64,000 nt of DNA from Candidatus Poribacteria bacterium (GTDB lineage: Bacteria; Poribacteria; WGA-4E; JAJDTR01). Of the stretch, positions 1-41,835 are shown one piece after another (the first letter of the stretch is position 1; each line of letters begins with the position of its first letter). The stretch lies in contig CBDCTK010000002.1 in the NCBI GenBank assembly GCA_965222225.1, positions 4,352,001 to 4,416,000 of the forward strand. Direction: 5' to 3'. The notes under the pieces were generated by a model. That model did no database searches and had not been told where the DNA came from. It worked only from the letters and a program-made list of their open reading frames with translations. The position numbers and the translations under genes are program-made.

Positions 1-223
1 TTGCACGCACCGCCGTCCGATGAATGACCCTCGTTGTACTCACTGACACGATTGAAACACTCCCTTTCGGACTGGTGGCAAGCCCCGACGGCTATTCCGA
101 GTTTCATCAAGTGGCTACAGGAGAACGCACGCTTTCGCGCGGATATGAAATACAAGGGCGGATCGCTTCGATTAACCGAGCCGGATATTCAAGTCCAACT
201 ATAGAAGGTAAGGAGATTTTCCG

Positions 224-745
224 ATGAAACTACTTTTACTCATTGCCGCTTTGATAAGCCTGTCGTCCTGCGCTTCAATTGAAAATCTTGGTCAAGCCCT
301 TGGTGGTGGCGGGGTGGAACCCGTCGACGGCAAATACTACATAGAATTGACGTATTTTAAAGAATCGACGACCAAACACCACTTCAAGGGGAAGTCCCCC
401 GCACAGGTTATGAAGAATCTCTCTGAAAATGCCTTTCTTAGAGAACAGCCGAAATATCTTTCTCGTGGTCGCGCCCAGGCGTATTATTACTGCCTTGACT
501 CACCCCGGTTTGTTCGCTATGTCCAGCTACATACGGCAGCCCCGATAAAGAACATCGATGTCTATGTCTGGGAGGGGGAGAACTGGGTGATTGTCCGTCA
601 ACTGTCAAAACCGATTAGCGCTAAAACTCGTATCGGCATCAATAGGCGCACGAGCGCTATTCGTGTTGTCCAAAAGACCGTGGACCTGGGACGAAAGCCG
701 ATGGACAGGATTACGGACTTTGATGTATACGTCCAGAAAAAGTGA
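224..745 (+). CDS. Putative lipoprotein, hypothetical (C-terminal beta-sandwich-like region)
   Basis: 173-aa ORF, SD AAGGAG upstream, signal peptide with lipobox LSSC. Confidence 0.7.
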   Translation: MKLLLLIAALISLSSCASIENLGQALGGGGVEPVDGKYYIELTYFKESTTKHHFKGKSPAQVMKNLSENAFLREQPKYLSRGRAQAYYYCLDSPRFVRYVQLHTAAPIKNIDVYVWEGENWVIVRQLSKPISAKTRIGINRRTSAIRVVQKTVDLGRKPMDRITDFDVYVQKK

Positions 746-833
746 GGATAGGCAAAAGGAACAACATCGATGAGTAAACTTCAAGACCTCGCCGCTCTCA
801 TGCGCGATTCATCCGAACAACGAAGAAAAGGAG

Positions 834-1052
834 GTGATGATCGGTCTCCGTTCTCAGAGCGTCAGACGCCAAGACAAGCGCCGCGGTCGAGAGAAAGACG
901 TTGACCTCACCGCCGTGTGCGATCACTGTCACGCCATGCTCCACCGAAAGTACGATCAACGCCGGTTGCGTTCTTTCTCGACTCACCCTCCCCTTTTGCT
1001 AACTTATACCGATGTTACTTCGATACCCTTGTCAGGGAGCGCAAGGATATAA
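834..1052 (+). pseudogene. Possible HNH endonuclease C-terminal remnant
   Basis: GREKDVDLTAVCDHCHAMLH resembles the HNH C-terminal CxxCHxxxH motif; the N-terminal CxxC/His half is absent. Confidence 0.4.
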
Positions 1053-1229
1053 TCGGACGGATCTTTGTCGTCGTCCGTCCGTGTCGATCCGTTCGCTTTG
1101 CTTATAGTCCGCCAAAAAAGTCTCAATGATTCGCCGCATCGTTTGACCAACGGTCCTGTCGGTTTGCTCGGCAACCTCGCGTAACTCCTCGAGCACTTGC
1201 GGCGGCAATCGAAGAGAGCACACTTTCAT
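1032..1229 (-). CDS. Ribbon-helix-helix (CopG-like) DNA-binding protein
   Basis: MKVCSLRLPPQVLEELREVAEQTDRTVGQTMRRIIETFL fits the beta-alpha-alpha RHH pattern; the open in-frame upstream sequence reads RGRPKK. Confidence 0.6.
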   Translation of the reverse strand: MKVCSLRLPPQVLEELREVAEQTDRTVGQTMRRIIETFLADYKQSERIDTDGRRQRSVRLYPCAP

Positions 1230-1482
1230 TACCTCGTCCTTTTCCTTTTTCGGGCGTCCGCGTATTGGCTCGCTCGTTTTTTCCCCCGCGTCTCCGTTGC
1301 CGGCTTTACCGCCCTTCCATTTTACCCTATCCCTCGCTCCAGTGCAAACCGTTAGAATTAACGTAATTTTTCGTATACTTTTATGTTGACGCTCTCAACC
1401 ACCATTACTTATAATTCCCGTTGAGCCAACAAAACTTCCCCGACAATACACTACTAACATTTTGCGACTATAATGAATCTCC

Positions 1483-1531
1483 TCTCCTTTACTTCCCATC
1501 TTTGAAACGGGCGATTGCGCCCCGTTCCGCC
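1483..1531. repeat. 49-bp direct repeat copy 1 (recombinase 3' end, stop and downstream SD); candidate att core
   Basis: 47/49 identical to 2888..2936. Confidence 0.85.
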
Positions 1532-2421
1532 ATTTCCGCCTTCGCGTAATGCGCCGGCATGTCCGCAGACTTCCATCTGCCCGCCGTCTGCATGTCCACA
1601 ACCGACGCCCCCGCCCGTGCCAATGATACCGCAGACCCTACACGGAGCGAGTGTCCACTGATGAATCCTTCCACGCCGGCTTCGGCAGACCACCGCTTGA
1701 TTGCGTCTCTCGCTCCGTTTGCCGTCAATCTGCCTTTGCCCAGGTGTTGCTGGTATCGCACTCTCCGGAACAATGCGCCGCGATCGATTCCCGACTTCCG
1801 CAGGTAACGCTTAATCACCCGCCGCGTGGATTCGCAGATATACAACGCCTCGCCGCGACCTTCCTGATCGGTCTTACTAGACTTGATCCGGAGCGTACTC
1901 CCCTTGATGTCCCCGACATTGACCGCAACCACTTCCGAGATACGCAACAGGCAATCGCTCATCAGGTTAATCAGCACAGAATCCCTCAGCCCCGCCAACG
2001 TCCGAGACGCTTCTGCGAAACTGGAGACCCGCTCCACATCCTTCCATGTCAACCCGTCCACTTGACCGCGACCGCGTTCCTTGCCTTCGCGCCGTATCCC
2101 CGCCAGTGTCCGCAAGGTGATTGCCCCTACCACATCCGGACGATCGATATTCTTGGCTTGCCACTTGACCGCCGCCACAACTTGAGCAATCGTGCTAGGG
2201 GCTTTGCCGCACTGGTGGAGTTGCGTGATGTATTCGGCAACCACGGCGTCTTTGAGAGGTTCGCTATTCGCTCGCTTCATTGCATACAGCCATGCGTTCA
2301 ACTCCACTAACGCCCTTCGATACGCTTTGAGCGTGTTATCCGATACGCCGGCTTTGATCAACTCCTTCGTGTCCACACTGATTGCGACTGCGTTCTTTTG
2401 CCCGATTGCCAATGCGTCCAT
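1489..2421 (-). CDS. Tyrosine recombinase/integrase (Cre-like)
   Basis: 310 aa; LRISE (Arg), SKTDQ (Lys), GHSLRVG (HxxR), GRW and HY (catalytic Tyr). Confidence 0.92.
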   Translation of the reverse strand: MDALAIGQKNAVAISVDTKELIKAGVSDNTLKAYRRALVELNAWLYAMKRANSEPLKDAVVAEYITQLHQCGKAPSTIAQVVAAVKWQAKNIDRPDVVGAITLRTLAGIRREGKERGRGQVDGLTWKDVERVSSFAEASRTLAGLRDSVLINLMSDCLLRISEVVAVNVGDIKGSTLRIKSSKTDQEGRGEALYICESTRRVIKRYLRKSGIDRGALFRRVRYQQHLGKGRLTANGARDAIKRWSAEAGVEGFISGHSLRVGSAVSLARAGASVVDMQTAGRWKSADMPAHYAKAEMAERGAIARFKDGK

Positions 2422-2437
2422 GATCCACCCCCCCCCG

Positions 2438-2881
2438 TTAATCCGACAACCAGATTTGTCCGTTCTTGCCGTTCAGCATGACAAACCCGTTATTCTTGTC
2501 AACGCCCATCAATGCGCCGCGGTCGATCGATGGGTTCTTGTCATTAACCGCGACGAACCCGCCATGCCCTCCGATCGACATCCGAGCGTCGCCTTTGTGT
2601 CCCGCGACATTGATTCGCCCTCCGGTTTTATCGATGGTCATGATCGCGACGCCCTTCTCGCCATATACTACGACACTCCCGCCGTGTTCTTCGCTATTGA
2701 TGACAACGCTGGCGTAGCCGTCCGCACCTCGCACTCTAACCTCATCACAGGTTATCGTCCCAAACTCCGCATCCTTCACATCGTTTTGCGCTCCGAGTGG
2801 CGCGAACGAACCCGCCGCCATCACCAGAACCGCCCCGACAACGCCACCAATTATCGCCGCATAGATCGCGTCTTGTTTCAT
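2438..2881 (-). CDS. Secreted/membrane-anchored Gly-rich beta-repeat protein (FGxITC paralog 1)
   Basis: N-terminal hydrophobic helix, FGTITC motif, repeated xxGGxVxV units, C-terminal KNG; paralogous to 3625..4212 and 6087..6776. Confidence 0.75.
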   Translation of the reverse strand: MKQDAIYAAIIGGVVGAVLVMAAGSFAPLGAQNDVKDAEFGTITCDEVRVRGADGYASVVINSEEHGGSVVVYGEKGVAIMTIDKTGGRINVAGHKGDARMSIGGHGGFVAVNDKNPSIDRGALMGVDKNNGFVMLNGKNGQIWLSD

Positions 2882-2887
2882 CTGTTT

Positions 2888-2936
2888 TCTCCTTTACTTT
2901 CCATCTTTGAAACGGGCGATCGCGCCCCGTTCCGCC
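2888..2936. repeat. 49-bp direct repeat copy 2; candidate att core
   Basis: 47/49 identical to 1483..1531; encodes AERGAIARFKDGK*. Confidence 0.85.
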
Positions 2937-3556
2937 CGCTCTATTATTTTAGCTAATCGCCGTGTTACCCACACCATCAGCAGCACAATGGCGAGCAAGC
3001 CAAATGCTTGTCCGCCACTTTCTCGTCCTTCCACTATCTTCGGTACCGCTTCGGTCACGGCTCGGACACTGCTGACGAGTATATCCCCCATACCGATCAC
3101 GGCGGCGCCGACCATACCGCTCCTGCCGGCACGTTTCTCTTGGGTCTCCCACCACTCTTTCGTTACCGGTCTCCAATCCCCCTCGATGGCAGACTCGCCG
3201 AACCGCTTGGGCGCGTCGGCGTAACGGCGCAGCCTAGCCGTGCCTTGCCCAATCCGCTGTCGCGCTTCGTTGTAGGTATGCCCTTCGCCCATCTCGTCGA
3301 AGATGAACTCCGCATCGCCGATAGAGAGTTCGCCCGATATCAGACGGCTCGCCAAGTCCTGTCCGTCCGGGTGTTCGTCCCACCACTTGTCAAGGTCCAT
3401 ATCCGCAAAGTTCTTGCCGGTGGTATCCGATTCTGGCATTGGATTTACTTGCTCAACTGCGCTCGGTTCGTTGAGCAGCGAAATGCAGGTCCCGATGATT
3501 ATTCCGACCAGCACGCCGCCTGCTATCCTGTAATACAGTCGCACTCTTGGCTTCAT
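2894..3556 (-). CDS. Hypothetical membrane protein ending in the recombinase C-terminal peptide
   Basis: 220 aa, SD GGAGGTG, N- and C-terminal TM segments, last 13 aa identical to the recombinase. Confidence 0.65.
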   Translation of the reverse strand: MKPRVRLYYRIAGGVLVGIIIGTCISLLNEPSAVEQVNPMPESDTTGKNFADMDLDKWWDEHPDGQDLASRLISGELSIGDAEFIFDEMGEGHTYNEARQRIGQGTARLRRYADAPKRFGESAIEGDWRPVTKEWWETQEKRAGRSGMVGAAVIGMGDILVSSVRAVTEAVPKIVEGRESGGQAFGLLAIVLLMVWVTRRLAKIIERAERGAIARFKDGK

Positions 3557-3624
3557 GATTCCATCACCTCCATGCAGCGTGTTATTTCCTCGATAGTCTC
3601 GTTAGTTTTAAGAGCTAGATTTTT

Positions 3625-4212
3625 TCAGTCCAACGTAGCCAACTTCCCGTTCTTGTCCGTCGTCGTCACCTCTCCGTTGCCGTCTTCTTTAACACCCATT
3701 GCAGCGCCGGATTTTCCATCCTCGCCAACCACGCGGACGACACCACCATCTTTATCAACGAACATCGACGCGCCGGATATTCCTCCAGACACGCTGACAG
3801 CGCCGCCATATTCATAGATTCGCATCGACGCGCCGCTGGTTAGTGTATCCTTGTCAGCCACGTGGATGTAACCGCCGCCATAAATTCCCATTTCTGCCCT
3901 GGCTTTTCCCTCCTCGCCAACCACGCGGATGCGCCCGCCATGTTCATCAACGACCATTGACGCGCCGGTTTTTCCATCCTTGCTATAAACGCGGACGACA
4001 CCGCCCTTGCCGTATTCATCACCGCGCATTTCCGCGCCGAGCTCTCCCTCCGCGTCAACCACCTTTATCTCCCGACAGGTTATCGTTCCGAACACCGCAT
4101 CCGGAGCGTTATTAAACGCCCCGCTCGGAGAGGTCAACCCCGCCGCCAACATGCCAACCAACATCAAGAACCCACCCAACGCGATATATCCCAATTTCTC
4201 TCGGTATTTCAC
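3625..4212 (-). CDS. Secreted Gly-rich beta-repeat protein (FGxITC paralog 2)
   Basis: 195 aa, SD AAGGAG, FGTITC, ~22-aa internal repeats (DEYGKGGVVRV, DEHGGRIRV, DKDGGVVRV), ends DKNGKLATLD. Confidence 0.8.
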   Translation of the reverse strand: MKYREKLGYIALGGFLMLVGMLAAGLTSPSGAFNNAPDAVFGTITCREIKVVDAEGELGAEMRGDEYGKGGVVRVYSKDGKTGASMVVDEHGGRIRVVGEEGKARAEMGIYGGGYIHVADKDTLTSGASMRIYEYGGAVSVSGGISGASMFVDKDGGVVRVVGEDGKSGAAMGVKEDGNGEVTTTDKNGKLATLD

Positions 4213-4225
4213 GATGCTTCTCCTT

Positions 4226-4365
4226 TCATTTCAGCGTTTCCAAGCGATAGCCGTTCTTGTCCCAAGTATTTACCGCACCGTTCCCAAACCCATTAACGCC
4301 TGTTGCGGCTCGGTTTGGTGTACATGGCAAAAGACCTGGACGCGCCCGCCATGTGCATAATCAAT
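4226..4365 (-). pseudogene. 3' remnant of a fourth FGxITC-family paralog
   Basis: Hand translation gives GVNGFGNGAVNTWDKNGYRLETLK*, close to the end of 6087..6776 (AVNEYGNGAVGTWDKNGYRLATLK); frameshifted, no 5' part. Confidence 0.75.
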
Positions 4366-4401
4366 CTTCTTAGCTCTTCAGAGCGCTCAATCCAAGCCGC
4401 G

Positions 4402-4671
4402 TTATCGCGTTATCTTGTAATACCCTGTGGCTGGCGACTCCAGTAGCCCGCGCCTGACAAGAGATCTACATGGGGCATTGCAGAGATGGTAGAAAACGTT
4501 GTCCCCATTCGGGTAACGCCTATTCCTCTGTTCCGTGGTAAGGGTAAACTGCTCTGCCAACGCATCCACAATTTTCTTACATCTGTGTTCTCCACCCCTT
4601 GCAACGTACCGAACGATAGCCTCTTCAATGTCACTATCCTCAGGCATATCAGGGTGTACCATCCTTTCCAT
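4402..4671 (-). CDS. Stand-alone Mrr N-terminal (winged-helix) domain protein
   Basis: GGEHRCKKIVDALAEQFTLTTEQRNRRYPNGDNVF...GLLESPATGYYKIT matches the Mrr_N pattern; ATG 4671 follows SD AAGGAG. Confidence 0.75.
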   Translation of the reverse strand: MERMVHPDMPEDSDIEEAIVRYVARGGEHRCKKIVDALAEQFTLTTEQRNRRYPNGDNVFYHLCNAPCRSLVRRGLLESPATGYYKITR

Positions 4672-4855
4672 AATGAATCTCCTTGTTTTAACATGATGAT
4701 GCTCCTGGGCGAACGATGGCATTACCAACCCCCAGCGAGTCAGCCGACAACCTAAAATTGCGATTGTCTAAAGTAATAATTGACTATCTACGGTATCGAA
4801 GAACATAAAGCAATACCGAAAACTTTTATCCATTGCTACTTTTCACTAAAGAACC

Positions 4856-4976
4856 AATCAAGCGGCTGAATAAGGAGCAACCGAGTGAATAACGAGGGAT
4901 CAAAGGAATGAATAATGACTGCGATAGAAAGTCTTGATAGTGATCCCAATGAGATAGAACTCCCATAGAGGTTCCC
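4856..4976 (-). repeat. Nested cluster of the GGATCTCTATCGC-N18-YGAT micro-element
   Basis: On the minus strand: four left halves, one full core (agtc att attc attc ctt) and two further right halves, next to the host motif TAGAGACTGGTGCGCA. Confidence 0.75.
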
Positions 4977-5268
4977 TGCGCACCAGTCTCTAGATAGCCT
5001 TCTTCCTAGACAAGCCTGCGAACTATACGCCGGGAGCAAGCGAAATGACCAGACACTAGACTTCCCGGTTTACGCGCCGACAAAGTGAAAATGTTCTGTG
5101 AGAAATGAAAATTGAAAAAATTCTGTGTGAATTTATGTGCAGGCAAGGCTTAATATCGCAAGGGTACCCAGATCGGGGATCGCATCTCTTGGCGCGACAC
5201 GGTTGATGCTCTGAGATTGCCGACTGGGAAAAGGGAAGGCAAAGATACTGGGAAACCATCACCCATCA

Positions 5269-6073
5269 TCACTTCCCATAGAAGAACCGAGCCACCGCCC
5301 CCCGTTCCGCCAGCTCCGCCCGCGCATAATGCGCCGGCATCTTTGGACCCTTCCATCTCCCCGCCGTCTGCATATCCACCACCGAGGCCCAGCTTGCGCC
5401 AACGACACCGCAGCCCCCACACGAAGCGAGTGTCCGGAGATGAATCCCGCAACACCCGCTTCGGCAGCCCGGCGCTTAATCGCGTTCCGAGCTCCGTTCA
5501 CCGAAAGCCTATCTGGTGTGATATGCTTCTGCCAGCGCACTCTCCGGAACAGAGCGCCCTCCTCTATCCCGGCAGCTTTACGATACTTCCGAATTACTTT
5601 GTGAGTCGGAGCTCCGACATACAACGCCACGCCTTCGCCCTCCTGATCCGCCTTACTGGCGCGAACCGTGAGCACCTTGCCGATATCCTCGACGTTGACC
5701 GCGACCACCTCCGAGATTCGCAACAAGCAATCGCTCATCAGCCGCATCATCGCCGAATCCCTCAGCCCCGCCAATGTCTTGCTCGCTTCCGCAAACGAAC
5801 ACACGCGCTCCATGCCCACCCGCGTTAGCCCGTCCACCTGACCGCGGCAACCGCTTGAGCGATAGTCGCCGGCGATCTCCCCGCAGTATGCAGCTCTGCA
5901 AAATATTCCGCCAACAGCCGATCATCAAGACCCCGACCCCCCAGCCAGTTTTCCAGCTTCTTCAGTGCGTGCCGATACGCTTTCAGCGTGTTATCCGACA
6001 CACTCGCCCGAATCAGATGTGCCGTACCTACCGATACCGGCATGTTTGCTTCTACTCGTGTTAGTTGATTCAT
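5269..6073 (-). pseudogene. Second Cre-like tyrosine recombinase, inactivated
   Basis: Paralog of 1489..2421; internal deletion/frameshift near 5840 and a second frameshift near 5385; the original end reads ...HYARAELAERGAVARFFYGK*. Confidence 0.88.
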
Positions 6074-6086
6074 AATTCGCCCTCTT

Positions 6087-6776
6087 TTACTTCAACGTTG
6101 CCAATCGATACCCATTCTTATCCCAGGTGCCAACCGCGCCGTTCCCGTACTCATTCACGGCCATCATCGCTTGTCCTTCTGAATCTCCCTTGCCTTGAAC
6201 GGAGACGAATCCACCATTGTCATTGACGCCAATAATCGCCCCGCCGGTGTCCATCTCTTTGCCCACAGCACCTAGGAAACCGCCCTGCTCGTTGATTTCC
6301 ACCGATGCCTTTCCTCTGTTCTCTCCCTTGCCATAAACCGAGAGATGTCCACCGTGCTCATTAACCCCTATAACTACATGCTTTCTTAGAAGGTTGCCGT
6401 AAATTTCGACTGTTCCATCGCGCGTTTGTCCGTTCATAAATCCCAATTGTACGCTTTTAACAGAGGCGGCATCACGATTCTCCATACGGGGAAAGCACAT
6501 TATATGCCCTCCATACTCACCAGCCTCCATAAACACACCGCGGAGATACGTAGGCGTGTTCGACCAGATTCCAACAATGCCACCAGTTTCCCCAGAACCG
6601 AGCTCAACCATCGGACGCCCCGCAGGATTAATCACCTTCAACCCCGTACAAGTTATTTCCCCAAACCTATCCGATTGACCTTGCACTCCAAGCGGGAAAA
6701 ACGAACACACCACCATCGTCAACACCGCTCCAACACATCCGCCTATTACCGCATACAACCGCTCTTTTGCTTTCAT
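6087..6776 (-). CDS. Secreted Gly-rich beta-repeat protein (FGxITC paralog 3)
   Basis: 229 aa, signal helix, FGEITC, repeated VNExGG units, ends TWDKNGYRLATLK. Confidence 0.8.
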   Translation of the reverse strand: MKAKERLYAVIGGCVGAVLTMVVCSFFPLGVQGQSDRFGEITCTGLKVINPAGRPMVELGSGETGGIVGIWSNTPTYLRGVFMEAGEYGGHIMCFPRMENRDAASVKSVQLGFMNGQTRDGTVEIYGNLLRKHVVIGVNEHGGHLSVYGKGENRGKASVEINEQGGFLGAVGKEMDTGGAIIGVNDNGGFVSVQGKGDSEGQAMMAVNEYGNGAVGTWDKNGYRLATLK

Positions 6777-6891
6777 GCGTTTATCCTTTCATGCGAAAAC
6801 AATAATTCTTCAACTATAAATAACCGTAATCACCTAGACTCCAACTAGATGCGGTCTATTAAGAACTTTGCCCTGGCATACTACCTGCGCT

Positions 6892-7752
6892 TTAGCTGTT
6901 TAGCACGCCAATCGCCTTAAAACAAGTCAGCGCTAACCTTCGAAATTGACTTAGGTAACACTCTTGCTCATCTCTCTGCCAGTCTTGTGGTACATTCGCT
7001 GGATGGCCCGCTTCGTTCCGATTTAGGCGGTATATGTTAGCCAATCCCTCCAACTTCCCCTTGAGTTCACTTCGCAATGTTGGATCCAAGGATTTGAATA
7101 AGTCGGTTGCCTTATCCACTAAGTGACGTGTTAATGCGGATATATTGGGCTTGCTGTCAATATCGCCCTTGCATTGCGGATTGCATAGAATTACCGCTTC
7201 CGCAAGACACTTTATAGTTCTCTCGGACGCTGCTCCGAGACAGATAACCGAGGAAATATAATTTCCGTTTTGGCAAGTACGCAGACTCTCCAAGTAATAC
7301 TGCTCCACAACCCCATCGAGATTGGGAATCTCCTTTTTCAGTGATTGCACAATCTCAAGTGATTGCACAATTTCATAGGGATCATCCACTAAAATCATTA
7401 TCCCGTCATCAAACTCCGACTTTTCACCGACGGACGTGAGACGAACACTACCATGTACAGTGGGAACATAACCTTCGCAACACCACTAATTTGCCTCCAT
7501 CAGCAATCCCCGTTGCTTGAGCCGCCCAATTGCTTCGTAAAACTTAAAAAGAAACGACTTATTTTTTTTGATATAACTACCATCGTCATCCTCCTTTCCA
7601 TACCTAGACTTCCGGGGGCAAAGTTGATTCTGCAAATCCTCTAAGCCGATACAGGGTAGATGCCGCTCTTTTTTCAAAAAGCAAAAAATAACTCGTGTAA
7701 GTTCCTCTATAGTGCACTGCTCCCTCTGTGTCTTATCCAACGCAAAATTCAT
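6892..7752 (-). pseudogene. Putative HEPN-like (RNxxxH) protein interrupted by one in-frame TAG
   Basis: ORFs 7486..7752 and 6892..7398 share a frame with only TAG 7486-7488 between them; C-terminal RNEAGH motif; 18-bp tandem duplication at 7340..7375 (EIVQSL x2). Confidence 0.6.
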
Positions 7753-7886
7753 AACATTTCTCCTTCTAATCGTGCGAACTTAGTTTGGTTGTCGTTCTTT
7801 ACTGAAATTGACGGAATGTCAATCCAGCAATAAACAAACCTCGCAAAACCATCGTATTGTGTATAAGGGAAATACAACCAAGTGAA

Positions 7887-8669
7887 TTACTTCTCACTCT
7901 CCTTTGCCTTATCCCAGATTTCGTCGAGGCCTGCCAAATCGTAATCCTTGAATGAATCGCCGCGGCGTTCCAGTTCCTTCTCCATCGCCTTGAAACGACC
8001 GACAAACTTGCGATTTGCCTTCCGTAGCGCCTCCTCCGCCTGCACATCCAGAAATCGACACAAATTGACAATCGAAAATAGGAGGTCGCCAATCTCCAAC
8101 TCAATCTCTTTAGGGTTACTATCTTGGATGCTCGCCTTCAATTCGGCAATTTCTTCGTCGATTTTTGGGAGCACGTCTGAAATGTCGTTCCAGTCGAATC
8201 CCACGCGGGCGGCTTTGCGCTGAAGCTTCTGCGCTCGTTGCAGGTTCGGCAAGTGGTCAGGAACCCCGTCAAGAACGGATTTGCGATCTTCATAGCCCGA
8301 TTCACTTCGCTTAATCCGTTCCCAGTTCTTAAAAACCTGATCCGTATTGTTCGCGTCTTGGTCGCCGAAAACGTGCGGATGGCGGCGGATGAGTTTCTCT
8401 GTAAGTATCTTGATGACATCGCCGATGTCAAATTCTCCCTCATCTCTTGCGATTTGTGCGTGCAGCATGACATTGCCAAGGAGATCGCCGAGCTCTTCCC
8501 GTAGTTTCGTTGAATTTCCGGCGTCAATCGCTTCAACAACTTCATAGGTTTCTTCAATGAGATCTGGTTTAATCGATTCGTGAGTCTGTTCGCGGTCCCA
8601 CGGACAGCCGTTTTCACTTCGCAGCGTGGCAAAGACTTGCACCAGTTGATTGAAAAGTTCTTTGTGCAT
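7887..8669 (-). CDS. mazG: Nucleoside triphosphate pyrophosphohydrolase MazG
   Basis: GCPWDREQTHES, EETYE, EELGDLL, RRHPHVFG, GFDW, EIGDLLF. Confidence 0.95.
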   Translation of the reverse strand: MHKELFNQLVQVFATLRSENGCPWDREQTHESIKPDLIEETYEVVEAIDAGNSTKLREELGDLLGNVMLHAQIARDEGEFDIGDVIKILTEKLIRRHPHVFGDQDANNTDQVFKNWERIKRSESGYEDRKSVLDGVPDHLPNLQRAQKLQRKAARVGFDWNDISDVLPKIDEEIAELKASIQDSNPKEIELEIGDLLFSIVNLCRFLDVQAEEALRKANRKFVGRFKAMEKELERRGDSFKDYDLAGLDEIWDKAKESEK

Positions 8670-8713
8670 AATGAAACTATCCTTATGAATTGAGTGTTGA
8701 GAATTTCGGGGTT

Positions 8714-8783
8714 AGTTTACTACCGCCACCACTGTCTGTCAAGTCGGAAAACCTTTGACAGGCTAGGGACAAGGTGATATGAT
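8714..8783. promoter_or_regulatory. Back-to-back sigma70-type promoters
   Basis: Plus strand TTGACA(8755)-17-TATGAT(8778); minus strand TTGACA(8742-8737)-17-TAAACT(8719-8714). Confidence 0.7.
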
Positions 8784-8845
8784 TCGCTAGGCTAGGACTG
8801 TTTATAGAGAGCGCATTTTATGATTCTAGTTTCATAGAGGATGAA

Positions 8846-9199
8846 ATGGAGTATACACTCAAGAATTGCCAAGAATTAGTAGATGAATGGATTCAAACCA
8901 TCGGTATCCGATATTTCTCCGAGTTGACGAATATCGCCATCTTAATGGAGGAGGTAGGAGAGTTGGCGCGGATTGCGGCTCGCGAGTACGGCGATCAGAG
9001 CTATAAGGAATCTGACAAGTCGGTCAACTTGGCTGAGGAGATGGCGGATGTGCTGTTCGTGCTCGTCTGTTTGGCGAATCAAACGGGGGTGGATTTGGAA
9101 GAGGCGTTTCGTAAATCAATTGAAAAGAAGACCAAGCGTGACAAGATCCGACATCGGGAAAACACAAAACTCTTTTCAGCGAAAGCCTCCGAGGGTTAA
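8846..9199 (+). CDS. MazG-like nucleotide pyrophosphohydrolase (YpjD family)
   Basis: YFSELTN, EEVGELAR, EEMADVLFV, ANQTGVDL. Confidence 0.9.
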   Translation: MEYTLKNCQELVDEWIQTIGIRYFSELTNIAILMEEVGELARIAAREYGDQSYKESDKSVNLAEEMADVLFVLVCLANQTGVDLEEAFRKSIEKKTKRDKIRHRENTKLFSAKASEG

Positions 9200-9208
9200 G
9201 TTTCCATT

Positions 9209-9787
9209 ATGAGCATGTTCCGCGAGCATTACATCGGCGGATTAATTGCCTACACGCTGTTCTTCGTACTTTCGTTCGGCGCTTCAATCTTCGGTCAGTT
9301 CGCGATGCAGGTGCCGCTTGAGCGAAATCCCACAATCCCTTTCAATCCGTGGGGCATTGGAGCGTGTTTTGTGGTTGCGGTGCTCTCGGGACTTTGGCCC
9401 GACGTGGACATCAAAAGCCGGAGTCAGCAGATTTTTTATCGAATTTTCCTCATATTTAGCACCATATTGATTCTTCGAAAGCAGTACTTCCAATCGGCAG
9501 TCTTGGGGATTTTTGCCATGCTGCCACTTCTCGGTAAACACCGCGGTTGGACACATTCCCGACTAACGATGCTGCTTTTGCCTGCCGTATTCCTCATACT
9601 ACCATTTTATTTTGAGGGCACTGTGGTCAGTTTCGACAACTTGAAGTCGTCCCAGAATCTGGATCTTTTTCGGTCAGGACTCCCTTTCTACACGGCGAGT
9701 TTGGTTGGGTATGCGACACATTTGCATTTGGACGGCATCCTATTGCACGCTCGAAAATCGCAGCAGCGGATGGCGAGATCCCGGTAG
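9209..9787 (+). CDS. Membrane-bound metal-dependent hydrolase (YdjM-like)
   Basis: Early His, PDVD, HRGWTHS and HLxLD motifs; several TM helices. Confidence 0.85.
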   Translation: MSMFREHYIGGLIAYTLFFVLSFGASIFGQFAMQVPLERNPTIPFNPWGIGACFVVAVLSGLWPDVDIKSRSQQIFYRIFLIFSTILILRKQYFQSAVLGIFAMLPLLGKHRGWTHSRLTMLLLPAVFLILPFYFEGTVVSFDNLKSSQNLDLFRSGLPFYTASLVGYATHLHLDGILLHARKSQQRMARSR

Positions 9788-9894
9788 CAGAGCCCAAACA
9801 CAATCGTTCTGGGCGAGTCTGACTCAGATAGTGGAATCTGGGCTTTTTCCGGTTTTCAAACTCAATTTTCAAACTCGGAAGGAGAGGCGGAATT

Positions 9895-10494
9895 GTGTTT
9901 GATTTTTGCCGCAGTATTTTACCCATCGCTACCGCGTTTGTCATCGCCGGGTGTGCCGATAATTCGGATCGGATGGATCTGAGGGTAGGGTTTTTTTTCA
10001 CTGAAGGCACTCGATCTCTAATAATGCCCTTTGAGCCCTATCACTATCCTGTCATGGATGTGAAAGACGATTTACGCGTGGGCAAAGACGTAGTATTAGC
10101 ACTTGCTAGGGCGTCTCGGCGCATTTTCGCTTCCGTTGAGGTGTTAGATTCATGTCCAACGCCGGAGTTGATAGTCGATAGACGGCTTAACCTTGTCATC
10201 ATAGCGCACGCTTTGCCGGGAGGAGGATCGCTTGGCTATCGGGGAGACGGTGTCCAAAATAGCAGCGAGGCTAGCAGGTCTCTGACTGCCAAACTGGCAT
10301 TTTACAGTCCTGAAATGATAGAAATCGCCGCTGTTACGGCGTCTGGAGAAGGGAAAGCTACGGCTAAAGGGATTCTGTTTGACTCCAGAAGGAGAGCTTT
10401 TGTCGGTGCGGTGAAGGCAGCCATCCGGAATCTTGGAGACGATGTGGCGCTGCAGATGTCTTCCAATCCTGAGATTCGCAAAACGGTGAAGTGA
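9895..10494 (+). CDS. Putative lipoprotein, hypothetical
   Basis: 199 aa, lipobox IAGC, purine-rich SD upstream. Confidence 0.6.
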   Translation: MFDFCRSILPIATAFVIAGCADNSDRMDLRVGFFFTEGTRSLIMPFEPYHYPVMDVKDDLRVGKDVVLALARASRRIFASVEVLDSCPTPELIVDRRLNLVIIAHALPGGGSLGYRGDGVQNSSEASRSLTAKLAFYSPEMIEIAAVTASGEGKATAKGILFDSRRRAFVGAVKAAIRNLGDDVALQMSSNPEIRKTVK

Positions 10495-38340: not shown

Positions 38341-39177
38341 ATGAACATGATTATTGCTAGATTCACACTTTTCGCTATCAGTTCTTTATTCGTAAGCTTA
38401 ACCTTAACGGATGTCGCTCATTCCCAGCCTTTTTTGAAAAATGCGGTGGCAATCTGGCTTTTCGACGAAGGCAGGGGCAAAGAAGTTACCGATTTTGCCC
38501 GCAATGACCACGACGGGGAGTTCGCTGGAAAACCCGAATGGGTTCCTGCCAAATTTGGGACAGGTTTGAAATTCCTCGGCGCAGACCAAAATACGTGGGT
38601 AGACATTGAACGTCCGGTCGTCGTGAACTCGGTTGATTTGAGTATCGGATGCTGGATGCTTCCAAGCAACCCGCAAGAGCGGTTCCAAAATGTACTTTCC
38701 GGTCGAGACGGAGAGATATCGGACGCCGGAATCGCCCTTCTGCAATACGAAAATACCACCAATAATTATCGGATTGCTATTGGAGGCGTGTTCAATTGGC
38801 AGGGGTTGGGAAATCCCAGGCATACTGCCAAGGTAGTTAAAGATGAATGGACGCATCTGGTTTTCGTGCGCGAAGGTAGGAACGGGATATGGTATATAAA
38901 CGGCGAACCCGATCGCCCGAAACGCGGGAACTTTCATATTGATACAGGTTCCAATAGACCTGCGAAACCTACCGATACGAATTTCCGCATAGGAGCCGCC
39001 GCATTTGATGAAAACCGGCGCTACCGAGGCGTTCTTGACGAGGCGTTTATATTTGAAAGAGCGCTGAGTCAAGAGGAGGTTCAACTCATCATGAACGAAG
39101 GATTCCTAGAAGCGCAAAATGTGGACGCCAAGGGCAAAGCCGCAACTGTCTGGGGCAGAATAAAATCGTCGCGTTAG
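38341..39177 (+). CDS. Secreted LamG-like protein 4
   Basis: Tandem paralog of protein 3; ends VDAKGKAATVWGRIK. Confidence 0.9.
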   Translation: MNMIIARFTLFAISSLFVSLTLTDVAHSQPFLKNAVAIWLFDEGRGKEVTDFARNDHDGEFAGKPEWVPAKFGTGLKFLGADQNTWVDIERPVVVNSVDLSIGCWMLPSNPQERFQNVLSGRDGEISDAGIALLQYENTTNNYRIAIGGVFNWQGLGNPRHTAKVVKDEWTHLVFVREGRNGIWYINGEPDRPKRGNFHIDTGSNRPAKPTDTNFRIGAAAFDENRRYRGVLDEAFIFERALSQEEVQLIMNEGFLEAQNVDAKGKAATVWGRIKSSR

Positions 39178-39437
39178 GCAGATGTTTCCGTGCTCAAGTC
39201 TGCGGTTAAGAATCCTCGAAATCTGAAGTCGACATTAATTATTAACTGGTAACAGGAAATCGGGATAGTTTATGTGTTACGTCTGTTCCGTTGACCTATC
39301 AGTTGATATGTCTTGCCTCACGGAAGAAGCGTATCTTGACATTATTGGGTTTCCGTGGAAGCGCCCACCTATTTCTGAATCTTCCCCTCAAAAAATTCAT
39401 GAAGACTATATTGCTAAGCGCCCGCTTAAATAATCGG

Positions 39438-40710
39438 TAGTAATGTTATTGGGACTTAGTAGTTAACTGCTTTTTGGTCGATTTGCTTGCTTTTCTCTTC
39501 TTAATGTACAATCATTTTAGACAGTGTTCGGAATCTTGATTCACACTAAAATACATCTCTATAAGAGAGAAATGGAGGCATATCATGTTGACCAAGCGTT
39601 TGTACATGCTCGCGGGAGCATTGCGGGTTATCTGCGGGATTTTAATTTCCAACACTATGGGATTTTCAGCACACCATGATGTTGTCGTTGACAGAATATA
39701 CCGATAGCCAAACAATTCATGTGGCTCAGGTGAAGCATTCATCAAAAAATCTTATGAAAATCTCATCATCTTTTCTGCGATTATATTTCCAGCAAGACTC
39801 CATGATATACAGTGGCAGCCACTTCTTGCTGTAGTGATGATGCGTTCCGTAGAATGACCTCTTGACACAAGCCCAAAACGACTCGATGGTGTTGGTGTGA
39901 GTTACGCCGTCCTCAGAAACATATCTCTCTTGGTGATGGATAACATGTCTTTCGATATCTTCGTCCAGACTATTGTAAGAGCGAAATTCATCAGTCATAA
40001 GAATAGACTCATCGGGTGAGACATTGCTAAGGATGAATTCTCTGATATTTTCACCAGATAGAACCTTCATGAATTTAGCAACCACCCGACCGCCTCTCTC
40101 GACTACGCCGATGACGGGAGATTTATTTGTGCCTCTACCTCTCTTAGATTTTGCTCTGGGTTTGCCGCCGACATAGGTTTCGTCCGCTTCAACTATCCCT
40201 TTCAGCAATTCATCACTATCACTCATTTTCTCACGGAGGCGCATTGCCATATACCAAGCGGACTTTTGATTCATGTCCAAGTCACGAGCAAGCTGACAAC
40301 TCGATATGCTTTTCTTGGCATTGGAAAGAATTGAGATAGCCAAAAACCATTTCTGGAGAGGTATCTTGGTACCATGGAAGATGGTTCCTGCTGTAGCCGA
40401 AAAGCTAGATTCACAATCGTAGCAATTCCAACCAGTAGTAATGTCGTTTTTGTTCTTGCGTCCAACTTTTTCACTGCCACAGTGGATACAGCAAACACCG
40501 TCCTTCCAACGTTTTTCCTCTATAAATCTGAGACAAGATTCTTGATTTGGAAACTCTTTCATAAGATTCAAAATGTCCATAGCAAACTCCTACGAGAAGA
40601 ATAGTCACTATGGACATCTACGTGTGACGAAAAGATTTACGACAGGGTACCAAGTTTTATGTTTGTCGTCAGTCTAAAAGCTACAAGCTACTAATTCCGA
40701 TGTTATTACC
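39438..40710 (-). mobile_element. IS1595-family insertion sequence (ends approximate)
   Basis: Imperfect terminal IRs containing TTAGTAG around the transposase; low GC. Confidence 0.65.
39726..40580 (-). CDS. IS1595-family (ISXO2-like) transposase
   Basis: Zn ribbon CxxC..CxxC, GTIF, VEADETYVGG, LMTDE, HTNTIESFW, HHYSKK. Confidence 0.95.
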   Translation of the reverse strand: MDILNLMKEFPNQESCLRFIEEKRWKDGVCCIHCGSEKVGRKNKNDITTGWNCYDCESSFSATAGTIFHGTKIPLQKWFLAISILSNAKKSISSCQLARDLDMNQKSAWYMAMRLREKMSDSDELLKGIVEADETYVGGKPRAKSKRGRGTNKSPVIGVVERGGRVVAKFMKVLSGENIREFILSNVSPDESILMTDEFRSYNSLDEDIERHVIHHQERYVSEDGVTHTNTIESFWACVKRSFYGTHHHYSKKWLPLYIMESCWKYNRRKDDEIFIRFFDECFT

Positions 40711-40922
40711 GGTGGTTTGAGGGTGGGCGTTTTTATGTTTTTTCAGTCGCCTCCGATTTACCTAGAAGATATCTATCGCATTGGGATCTCAATCACATTC
40801 CTTGTTCGGTCATGTGATTCATTCGCACGCTTAATTGCAGGGGTCACTATCCATTCCTTTGATCGCGCGCTTCAAGAGTGCTGATGATAAACTTGGTTTT
40901 AAGCGAATGGTGATAAAAGAAG

Positions 40923-41762
40923 ATGTTTCTTCGATCAGGCTCTAAAGTAACGCTTTTCGGCATCAGTTTTTTATTCGTTTGCTTGATATTTACGAGCACC
41001 GCTCATTCACAGCCGTTTCTGAGAAAAGCCGTGGCAATCTGGCTTTTTGACGAAGGCACGGGTAAGAAAGTAAACGATTTTGCCCGCAATGGCCACGATG
41101 GCGAGTTTACTGGAAAGCCCGAATGGGTACCTGGTAAATTTGGAACAGGATTGAAATTCGCAGGTGCGGATGACAACCAGTGGGTAGACATTGAGCGTCC
41201 GGTCGTCGTAGACTCCGTTGATTTTAGCATCGGATGCTGGATGCTCCCGGGTGCCCCGCAGCACTGGCACCAAAATCCGCTTTCCGGTCGGCCCGCGGAT
41301 GCGTCGGACGAAGGCATTGCTATTGCACAGTACGAAAACGCTGTCAATAGCTATCGAATGGTTATCGGAGGAGTGTTCAATTGGGAGGGGTTGGGCAATC
41401 CGAGAAACTCTGCCAGGCTTAATCAGGATGAATGGACTCATCTGGTTTTCGTGCGCGAGGGCAAAGGAGGGACATGGTACAAAAACGGCCAGCCCGATCG
41501 CCCAAAGCGCGGCAATTTTTACATTAATATTGGAAATGACAATCCCGTGAATGCTACCGAGACGAATTTCCGCATCGGAGCCGCGTCATTTGATGAATTA
41601 CGGCGTTACCGAGGTATACTTGACGAAGCGTTTGTATTTGAAAGGGCGCTGAGTCAAGAGGAAGTTCAACGAATCATGAACGAAGGATTTGAGGAAGCGC
41701 AAGACGTCGATTCCAAGGGCAAAACCGCAACGGTATGGGGGAGGATAAAGACCTCGCGTTAA
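40923..41762 (+). CDS. Secreted LamG-like protein 5 (native start at 39399 separated by the insertion; alternative ATG inside the element end)
   Basis: Paralog of proteins 3 and 4 from KVTLF onward; ends VDSKGKTATVWGRIK. Confidence 0.75.
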   Translation: MFLRSGSKVTLFGISFLFVCLIFTSTAHSQPFLRKAVAIWLFDEGTGKKVNDFARNGHDGEFTGKPEWVPGKFGTGLKFAGADDNQWVDIERPVVVDSVDFSIGCWMLPGAPQHWHQNPLSGRPADASDEGIAIAQYENAVNSYRMVIGGVFNWEGLGNPRNSARLNQDEWTHLVFVREGKGGTWYKNGQPDRPKRGNFYINIGNDNPVNATETNFRIGAASFDELRRYRGILDEAFVFERALSQEEVQRIMNEGFEEAQDVDSKGKTATVWGRIKTSR

Positions 41763-41835
41763 CATAGCTTTATCGTTCCGAGGTTTGCCGTTAAAACTCC
41801 GAGAAAACTGAAGTCGAACTATCAGCCTATAACAG

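Follow-up and report, generated by a model that had tools for sequence, protein, structure and literature searches.

How does a very small repeat come to lie several times over inside copies of itself? The question is raised by a tract at positions 4856-4992 of a 64,000-nt window (the whole stretch of Candidatus Poribacteria DNA that was analysed), in which the halves of a repeat are stacked around a single core. Repeated entry of new copies into a previous copy would leave all left halves in a row, followed by all right halves. An earlier note, made from the letters of the window, had proposed this origin for the tract. In the analysis described here, a probability of about 0.6 was given to the reading that copies of a dispersed 37-nt hairpin element, specific to Candidatus Poribacteria, are truly nested in the tract.

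Layers of the Stack

Read on the minus strand from 4992 down to 4856, the tract opens with the left half of a REP, continues with a left half that has no partner, and then holds one intact unit inside two interrupted ones. The order of host, left halves, core and right halves is the one given by the earlier note, and re-reading the sequence bore it out exactly. The host context is the left half of a GTAG-type REP (REP-B; 4977..4992, minus strand) which ends in TGCGCA. The empty form of REP-B reads ..GGCTGGTGCGCA-G-TGCGCACCCTACAA, and its right half (GCACCCTAC) is missing at the stack locus. The layers that follow all lie on the minus strand and are numbered with the C of CTATCGC as position 1 of the unit. 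The outermost is the orphan left half L1 (4965..4976), which begins with the left arm and stops after CTAT (unit position 4). Inside it are the left part of U2 (4948..4964), interrupted after about position 10, and the left part of U3 (4935..4947), interrupted after CTATC (position 5/6). The innermost layer is U4 (4898..4934), an intact 37-nt unit with an AG..CT core. On the far side, the right part of U3 (4875..4897) contributes positions 8-30 and keeps the CC/GG and GT/AC pairs intact, and the right part of U2 (4856..4874) contributes positions 12-30 and keeps its CT/AG pair intact. The pair 8,9 / 23,24 of U2 (AT vs GC) is complementary in part only.

No right half of L1 was recognised; the sequence from 4855 downward (GGTTC..) does not fit one, and the parse restored no fourth level. 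The stack is therefore counted as four lefts and three rights, that is, three nested units and one unmatched left. All lefts precede all rights as had been described, while the outermost left lacks its partner. In a parse which excises each unit and rescans the sequence with a position matrix, U4 scored 49.2 bits, the restored U3 42.7 bits and the restored U2 35.3 bits, compared with a top score of -1.4 in 2 Mb of shuffled genome. According to these layers, U2 would have entered the unit of L1, then U3 would have entered U2, and finally U4 would have entered U3.

A reference copy is found elsewhere in the window, at 34386..34422 on the plus strand, where a single AG..CT unit interrupts the centre of a REP-B that is otherwise complete. 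Another unit, at 34319, lies in the foot of a REP-A within the same repeat cluster. The note had also linked the inner core of the stack to the copy near 34400 and to a shared host context. Indeed, the 23-nt core and right end of U4 are identical in the copy at 34386-34422, and the host contexts differ at 1 of 16 bases (TAGAGG.. vs TAGAGA..). No orthologue of the region 4200-5700 was found in 12 relatives, in which only repeats and a multi-copy recombinase-like gene gave matches, and at Rfam gathering thresholds there were zero family matches anywhere in the window.

Public contigs cover the stack in pieces. Contigs of run X7 match 4628-4926, 4911-5019 and 4990-5229 with 0 differences, and contigs of runs X1 and X10, which come from other studies, cover 4475-4915 and 4472-4925, again with 0 differences. 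A contig of run X2 covers 4952-5119 with 2 differences, and the left side in X10 likewise has 2 differences. Overlapping contigs from independent runs thus agree on the assembly, while none of the public contigs examined bridges the entire stack. The alleles of differing depth that the note had suggested looking for did not turn up in reliable form among these contigs. A joint in run X1 that skips 4929-4972 was rejected as a depth allele, as it has 20 nt on one side and probably represents a paralogue. A diverged contig of the same run, which replaces 4814-4877, was unusable as an allele of the stack locus. Just outside the stack, in the host repeat, there is an 8-base indel polymorphism at 4989/4990, where public contigs (X7 at low depth, X10 and X1) carry 8 extra bases behind 4989.

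The 37-nt Unit and Its Hairpin

The unit has the 37-nt consensus GGGATYT-CTATCGC-NN-TC-NN-TATYC-NN-TC-NN-TTGATC. Its architecture is rigid and comprises a left arm (GGGATYT), a box (CTATCGC), a hairpin (NN-TC-NN / TATYC / NN-TC-NN) and the end TTGATC. The left arm occurs in 7-nt and 8-nt forms, which are correlated with the entry class. In the genome (5.70 Mb on two contigs, GC 0.50), 1105 contiguous units were found with a 39-column matrix at a threshold of at least 22 bits. The spacing is equally fixed, as CTATCGC-N17-TTGAT occurs 812 times, compared with at most 9 occurrences at any other spacing from 10 to 25, and the commonest 12-mer of the genome is GATCTCTATCGC. The units are extragenic, with 143 of 1102 midpoints falling in ORF proxies vs 913 expected.

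Further genomic analysis revealed the pattern in every other genome of the genus that was scanned (9/9; 281-768 copies each), in the one sister-genus genome scanned (1/1; 2 copies) and in 4 of 4 genomes of a genus from another family (108-128 copies). It was absent from all 16 genomes scanned from six other genera of the order, and the reversed pattern, used as a control, gave 0 matches in all genomes scanned. When one genome of each prokaryote species was scanned, 80 of the 80 matches listed belonged to Poribacteria. Among the matches listed, the unit was found only in Poribacteria MAGs. A PBP1a-like gene of the genome has matches of 86-90% identity, all of them in Candidatus Poribacteria MAGs, and a cyanobacterial origin was rejected.

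The variable positions of the unit are tied to one another. Watson-Crick pairs are found at positions 8-24, 9-23, 12-20 and 13-19 in 766, 990, 1015 and 902 of the 1105 units, respectively, compared with 333, 428, 390 and 533 after shuffling. Three pair types are in use at three covarying pairs and two at 13-19, and the 1105 units contain 540 distinct cores. Between these pairs, the invariant positions 10-22 and 11-21 are T.C and C.T, which form a tandem G.A mismatch on the complementary strand. This bottom strand reads as two 2-bp helices around the tandem G.A mismatch, with a 5-nt loop, and the sequence in front of its hairpin starts with GATCAA. Moreover, the cells which are not Watson-Crick are mostly of the A.C type (496) and seldom of the G.T type (87), and this excess points to wobble pairs on the bottom strand. 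The same covariation and the same strand preference were seen in 217 units from other Poribacteria genomes. With RNA parameters, the exact hairpin was predicted for 4 of 5 bottom strands and 1 of 5 top strands. DNA folding parameters gave no significant structure for single units or for the whole stack, with z-scores of about +1, so that support for the hairpin comes from covariation and not from thermodynamics.

The AG..CT core of U4 is the commonest variant, with 51 of the 1105 copies. Eight AG..CT units lie inside another unit and only 3 are themselves interrupted, counts which fit a recently active variant and the reading that the innermost unit is the youngest.

Nesting Across the Genome

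The stack is one of many. A total of 258 of the 1105 contiguous units (23%) lie inside another unit, and a count restricted to junctions inside the unit gave 847 single units and depths of 2, 3 and 4 for 217, 38 and 3 units, respectively. These counts place the stack among the deepest 41 of 1105. They leave out a tandem array of variant units, from which stacks of depth 5 and 7 had been parsed; these were rejected as parser artefacts and are not nests. The array itself lies outside the window, at about 1578300-1578650 of the contig G000:C2, and contains at least six 38-nt units with the left arm CTACAAGA instead of GGGATYT. It was not considered a product of slippage, since every unit has a different variable core.

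Two other origins of the stack were weighed here, namely local slippage or tandem duplication of half-units, and misassembly of a repeat-rich spot. Misassembly would be in keeping with the lack of a single public contig across the whole stack, but the overlapping contigs of several runs match the stack with 0 differences. Slippage would leave halves that alternate head to tail, and tandem clusters do exist, both as the variant-unit array and as (LR)n clusters. In the 200 clusters with at least two lefts and at least two rights, however, the L+R+ order was found in 127, five times the 24.3 expected at random, and (LR)n in 24; by type, 85 clusters are LLRR and 20 are LRLR. The genome-wide parse of left and right halves suggested by the earlier note therefore speaks for a non-alternating arrangement. 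Moreover, neighbouring layers have different cores and so are not duplicates of each other, and the two parts of split units pair with one another. For positions 8,9 vs 23,24 both pairs are complementary in 92 of 149 split units, whereas permutation gave a mean of 54.6 and a maximum of 69. The same architecture is also present in other Poribacteria genomes, where 62 of the 217 units are nested. Slippage was rejected, and slippage and misassembly together were judged hardly credible as the source of the stack.

Nesting by insertion into a resident copy is thus upheld by the L+R+ order, by pairing across the interruption, by the agreement of contigs and by the variety of the nests. When inner core, outer core and junction are taken together, the 258 nested pairs fall into 252 different combinations, so the nests are not copies of a few composites and represent independent events. 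New copies enter resident copies at a few fixed points and mostly in the same orientation, as outer and inner units agree in 276 cases and are inverse in 41. The entry points fall into three groups. In 115 pairs the junction is at about position 4-6, before the stem (just 5' of the hairpin, after CTAT/CTATC); in 82 pairs it is at 9, 10 or 12, the TC of the internal loop; and in 17 pairs it is at position 16, in the apical loop. If inner copies are younger, divergence from the consensus would rise outward. The junction-masked score, as a fraction of the maximum, falls from 0.746 at level 0 to 0.724 at level 1 and 0.711 at level 2, so that the outward rise which the note had suggested testing for was found but is weak.

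Entry Into Other REP Families

Besides its own copies, the unit is found at precise points in other hairpin repeats, where paralogous copies of a site can be compared in filled and empty form. At the centre of REP-B, 75 sites are empty and 17 are filled with one unit, which replaces TGC. At the foot of REP-B, 84 are empty and 19 are filled, with GC replaced. The corresponding numbers are 25 empty and 8 filled at the foot of REP-A (CGC replaced), and 100 empty and 7 filled at REP-C (TC replaced), again with one unit per filled site. The filler is 37 nt long in 46 of 51 filled sites. The orientation is the same in every case (52:0 with strict flanks and 72:0 with loose flanks). Inserted cores differ among the units at three of the four site families, which argues for recurrent insertion events. 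Filled and empty paralogues show, as far as sequence comparison goes, that the unit has fixed entry points in at least three other REP families and a single orientation at each.

No target-site duplication was found at the four site families or in self-nests. Instead, 2-3 bases are replaced at the REP sites, and in self-nests the outer unit is likewise without 2-3 bases. Insertion is therefore not a clean addition, as 2-3 target bases give way to the 37 nt of the unit. Assigning the final TC of the unit to the target makes the entries at REP-C and after positions 9 and 16 exact, but CT(A/G)T-CGC sites still lose one or two bases. The left flanks are variable (CTAT, GCAC, GGAGA, CTGGT, GCGCAG, CCTGT), and the left junctions have no consistent microhomology. 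A covariation between guide and target of the IS608 type was not seen; the mutual information of variable positions and flanks shows only the register of the 7-nt vs 8-nt left arm. Four related species were compared in orthologous intergenic regions, which vary in whether units are present, in how many there are and in which direction they point. These regions are too diverged for base-level empty sites between species, and none were obtained.

These junctions can also be read as the result of copying without a transposase. A nascent strand stalled at a hairpin would switch template to another unit, copy it and switch back, leaving a templated 37-nt insertion with a few target bases lost. This agrees with the replacement of 2-3 target bases without duplication, and with the fact that every target is a hairpin. 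Moreover, the last bases of the unit (TC or C) are often the bases lost by the target. At REP-C, TC is lost (95 of 100 empty sites), and the entries after 9 and 16 are exact if TC is shared. The tracking of replication direction by unit orientation and the failure to find a cognate enzyme, both described below, would also follow. Against template switching, the entry points are precise and recurrent, with 52:0 at four unrelated sites, which is more like sequence-specific enzymology; the left junctions lack consistent microhomology; and the inserted block has a constant length in nearly all filled sites. Template switching was considered rather unlikely on this balance.

Orientation and Replication

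The orientation of the units is linked to GC skew. Where the skew is positive, 307 units are '+' and 181 '-', and where it is negative, 174 are '+' and 369 '-'. Overall, 676 units agree with the sign of the skew and 355 disagree, with replichores inferred from skew only. The strand on the lagging-strand template in about 65% of copies is the top strand, whereas covariation favours folding of the bottom strand, a mismatch that counts against the single-strand mechanism considered below. No link was found between unit orientation and the direction of flanking genes (r = -0.07), as '++' intergenic regions contain 152 '+' and 210 '-' units and '--' regions 125 '+' and 151 '-'. Adjacent units at most 400 nt apart have the same orientation in 292 cases and are inverted in 82, with no preferred spacing. 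Within the window, the GC skew of positions 1-10000 changes sign near 8 kb, with the cumulative minimum at about 8000. Synteny with relatives is lacking in the first 8 kb of the window, and the end of this segment coincides with the change of sign.

The independence from gene direction bears on another explanation, in which the unit is a structural or RNA motif selected by the host, such as a transcript-end hairpin or a protein-binding site, and the stacks are a by-product of recombination between copies. Such a motif would account for the strong compensatory covariation kept in hundreds of copies with 540 cores, for the extragenic location and for the folding of the bottom strand under RNA parameters. 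However, its orientation should not be independent of the flanking genes. Filled and empty sites, together with the differences between species, speak for gain at precise points, and an inserted copy would destroy a functional hairpin, yet 23% of units are nested. Selection by the host was judged an improbable source of the family and its stacks.

Candidate Enzymes

In HUH/Y1 transposition as it occurs in IS608, DNA is added 3' of a fixed short target without loss. A single-strand HUH mechanism for the unit is suggested by insertion without duplication and in a fixed orientation, by targets that are hairpins and by the way in which orientation follows GC skew. It is possible, and was put forward tentatively from sequence features, that the unit is mobilised as single-stranded DNA handled by one of the HUH/Y1 transposase-like proteins of the genome. 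The loss of 2-3 target bases and the lack of a conserved left flank are points against involvement of a Y1 enzyme, and the failure of DNA folding parameters to predict the hairpin also weighs against the model.

The genome has 5 matches to Y1 (PF01797), with units within 200 bp of 3 of them. At two Y1 loci inverted units lie on both sides, an arrangement that 21 of 4177 proxy genes have. The intact IS200-like gene encodes 157 aa (NF033573, 65.8 bits) and is located at L091:656-1129 on the minus strand, which corresponds to G000:C2:3080255-3080728. Its homologues (in L088-L104) are 65-91% identical across four genera and lie in a different genomic context in each genome, and the relative G001 has two copies 3 kb apart. 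Between genomes, only the gene and about 60 bp per side align. It is always flanked by inverted REP-A hairpins, with ..GCCCCAGCGGGGCGACAGGT upstream and its complement downstream, and the unit beside it is an insertion into the flanking REP-A.

The RAYT-like genes form at least five paralogue groups, each with its own flanking family of GTAG-tagged REPs (L230-L249; L092 and L093, which are G000:C2:3559700-3561100 and 3088300-3090800). These GTAG REPs sometimes carry inserted units. Of the RAYT-like copies in this genome, one is truncated (73 aa) and one has an in-frame TAG. Both Y1 families are also present in genera without units. The inverted units around two Y1 loci had pointed to a Y1 gene as the unit's own RAYT, but this proposal lost weight, since the immediate flanks are REP-A or GTAG REPs which carry unit insertions. 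No RAYT flanked primarily by the unit was found, and no cognate enzyme was assigned.

A further proposal was that the unit is a MITE, shortened from a parent insertion sequence (DDE or IS110-type) that would move it in trans. The unit does have 6-nt terminal inverted repeats (GGGATC..GATCCC). Insertion sequences of the IS110/IS1111 family enter REPs in a specific orientation and without duplication, as the unit does. A DDE origin is opposed by the lack of target-site duplication, and the IS110-family transposase (PF01548) gave 0 matches in the genome although the controls were positive, so the idea of an IS110 enzyme with a bridge RNA was dropped. Moreover, no longer element bounded by unit ends was found. 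There are 47 pairs of left and right ends with a distance of 300-5000 nt, but they do not agree on any one length, and no homology was seen among the 14 of them that were compared. The MITE explanation was rejected as very unlikely.

Comparison With Known Small Repeats

Like the REPs of REP/RAYT systems, the unit is a short, abundant, extragenic and lineage-restricted hairpin repeat without target duplication, in a genome which holds several RAYT-like genes flanked by GTAG REPs. REPs have been described with sub-families that use alternative complementary stem residues, with G.T pairing and with unpaired G-A residues (PMC3733652). The criteria of a further study require a GTAG/GTGG tetranucleotide 0-2 nt 5' of the hairpin foot, a basal stem of 7-20 fully paired GC-rich bp and a loop of 2-5 nt (PMC6006769). 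By comparison, the unit has no GTAG/GTGG tag 5' of its hairpin, and its stem of 2+2 bp around a tandem G.A is not fully paired and GC-rich. Of 813 standalone units, about 170 are followed by CCTAC, all of them hosted by a GTAG REP, and empty GTAG REP sites already carry it. The unit also differs from REPs in that it enters other REPs and itself. It thus lives like a REP but falls outside the REP anatomy defined in PMC6006769, and an assignment as a canonical REP was rejected. The word 'nested' is absent from PMC3733652 and from the text of Bertels and Rainey 2011. In the literature searched on REPs, RAYTs, REPINs and nested MITEs, no description of the unit or of self-nesting REPs was found. 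In REPINs, as they have been defined, two inverted REPs form a hairpin of roughly 100 bp which is the replicating unit (bioRxiv 10.1101/2021.07.10.451892). The unit differs, as it occurs mostly as singlets or same-orientation nests and not as inverted doublets (292 vs 82 neighbours).

The SDR1-8 repeats of Nostocaceae are likewise very small and mobile, and compensatory changes occur in their predicted hairpin, which is conserved. Some SDRs are said to lie inside other copies. They are 21-27 nt long, whereas the unit is 37 nt long, belongs to Poribacteria and has a different sequence. Two studies state that SDR5 inserts precisely between the third and fourth base of the palindrome HIP1 (PMC4390886, PMC5861425). 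HIP1 is scarce here, with GCGATCGC present only 120 times in the genome, and a link to it was rejected. Set beside the unit by description, the cyanobacterial SDR family would be the nearest conceptual precedent.

Elements of the IS200/IS605 type resemble the unit in the lack of target duplication, in orientation-specific entry and in a replication-linked orientation bias (676 vs 355 for the unit), and an IS200-like gene is present in the genome. By analogy, the imperfect, mismatched hairpin of the unit could serve as a recognition feature, as in IS200/IS605. However, the unit has a single hairpin and not one at each end, it lacks a conserved tetra- or pentanucleotide on its left flank and 2-3 target bases are lost, and the flanks of the IS200-like gene itself are REP-A and not the unit. 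A further likeness concerns the targets. IS1397 reportedly inserts into palindromic units, and other insertion sequences are said to target REPs, so that REP hairpins are preferred, position-specific targets of a mobile element there as well. Those elements are full-size insertion sequences that carry genes, whereas here the invader is itself a 37-nt hairpin repeat.

Implications and Neighbouring Features

What is unusual in the unit is the combination of nesting in itself at defined hairpin positions, colonising other REP families and replacing target bases. A bolder reading, which was regarded as somewhat unlikely as a whole, is that of a 'hyper-parasitic' hairpin of 35-37 nt which would home with strand specificity and base precision into single-stranded hairpins, both those of other REP families and those of its own copies, replacing 2-3 bases. 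Within this reading, homing may perhaps occur by mimicry of a RAYT/Y1 processing site, as suggested by sequence resemblance. The unit box CTATCGC resembles CTGTCGC at the foot of REP-A, which is a target of the unit.

If true, the unit would rank as the smallest mobile DNA that nests in itself outside cyanobacteria and, with respect to REP-RAYT systems, as a second-order parasite. Independently of this reading, the family shows that a still smaller element can colonise REP hairpins. The multiplication of REP-like repeats is still largely inferred, and the family provides unusually clean natural data, with hundreds of independent insertions, filled and empty sites at base level, a fixed orientation and defined entry points. 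The replacement of 2-3 bases, the fixed orientation and the small number of entry points constrain the chemistry, which would be single-stranded, sequence-specific and not of the DDE type. These features make the chemistry testable with the organism's own Y1 proteins. In metagenomes of sponge symbionts, such stacks are also places where assemblies tend to break and where strains can be typed.

Other repeated sequences are present in the window. By eye, two adjacent ORFs at 5259-6073 on the minus strand (192 aa and 82 aa) resemble a tyrosine-recombinase gene that has been split, and the DNA of 5271-5700 has many copies of 66-86% identity in this and related genomes. At 35500-41800 there is a block of mutually similar genes (67-84% DNA identity), which is also expanded in the relatives G001-G003.
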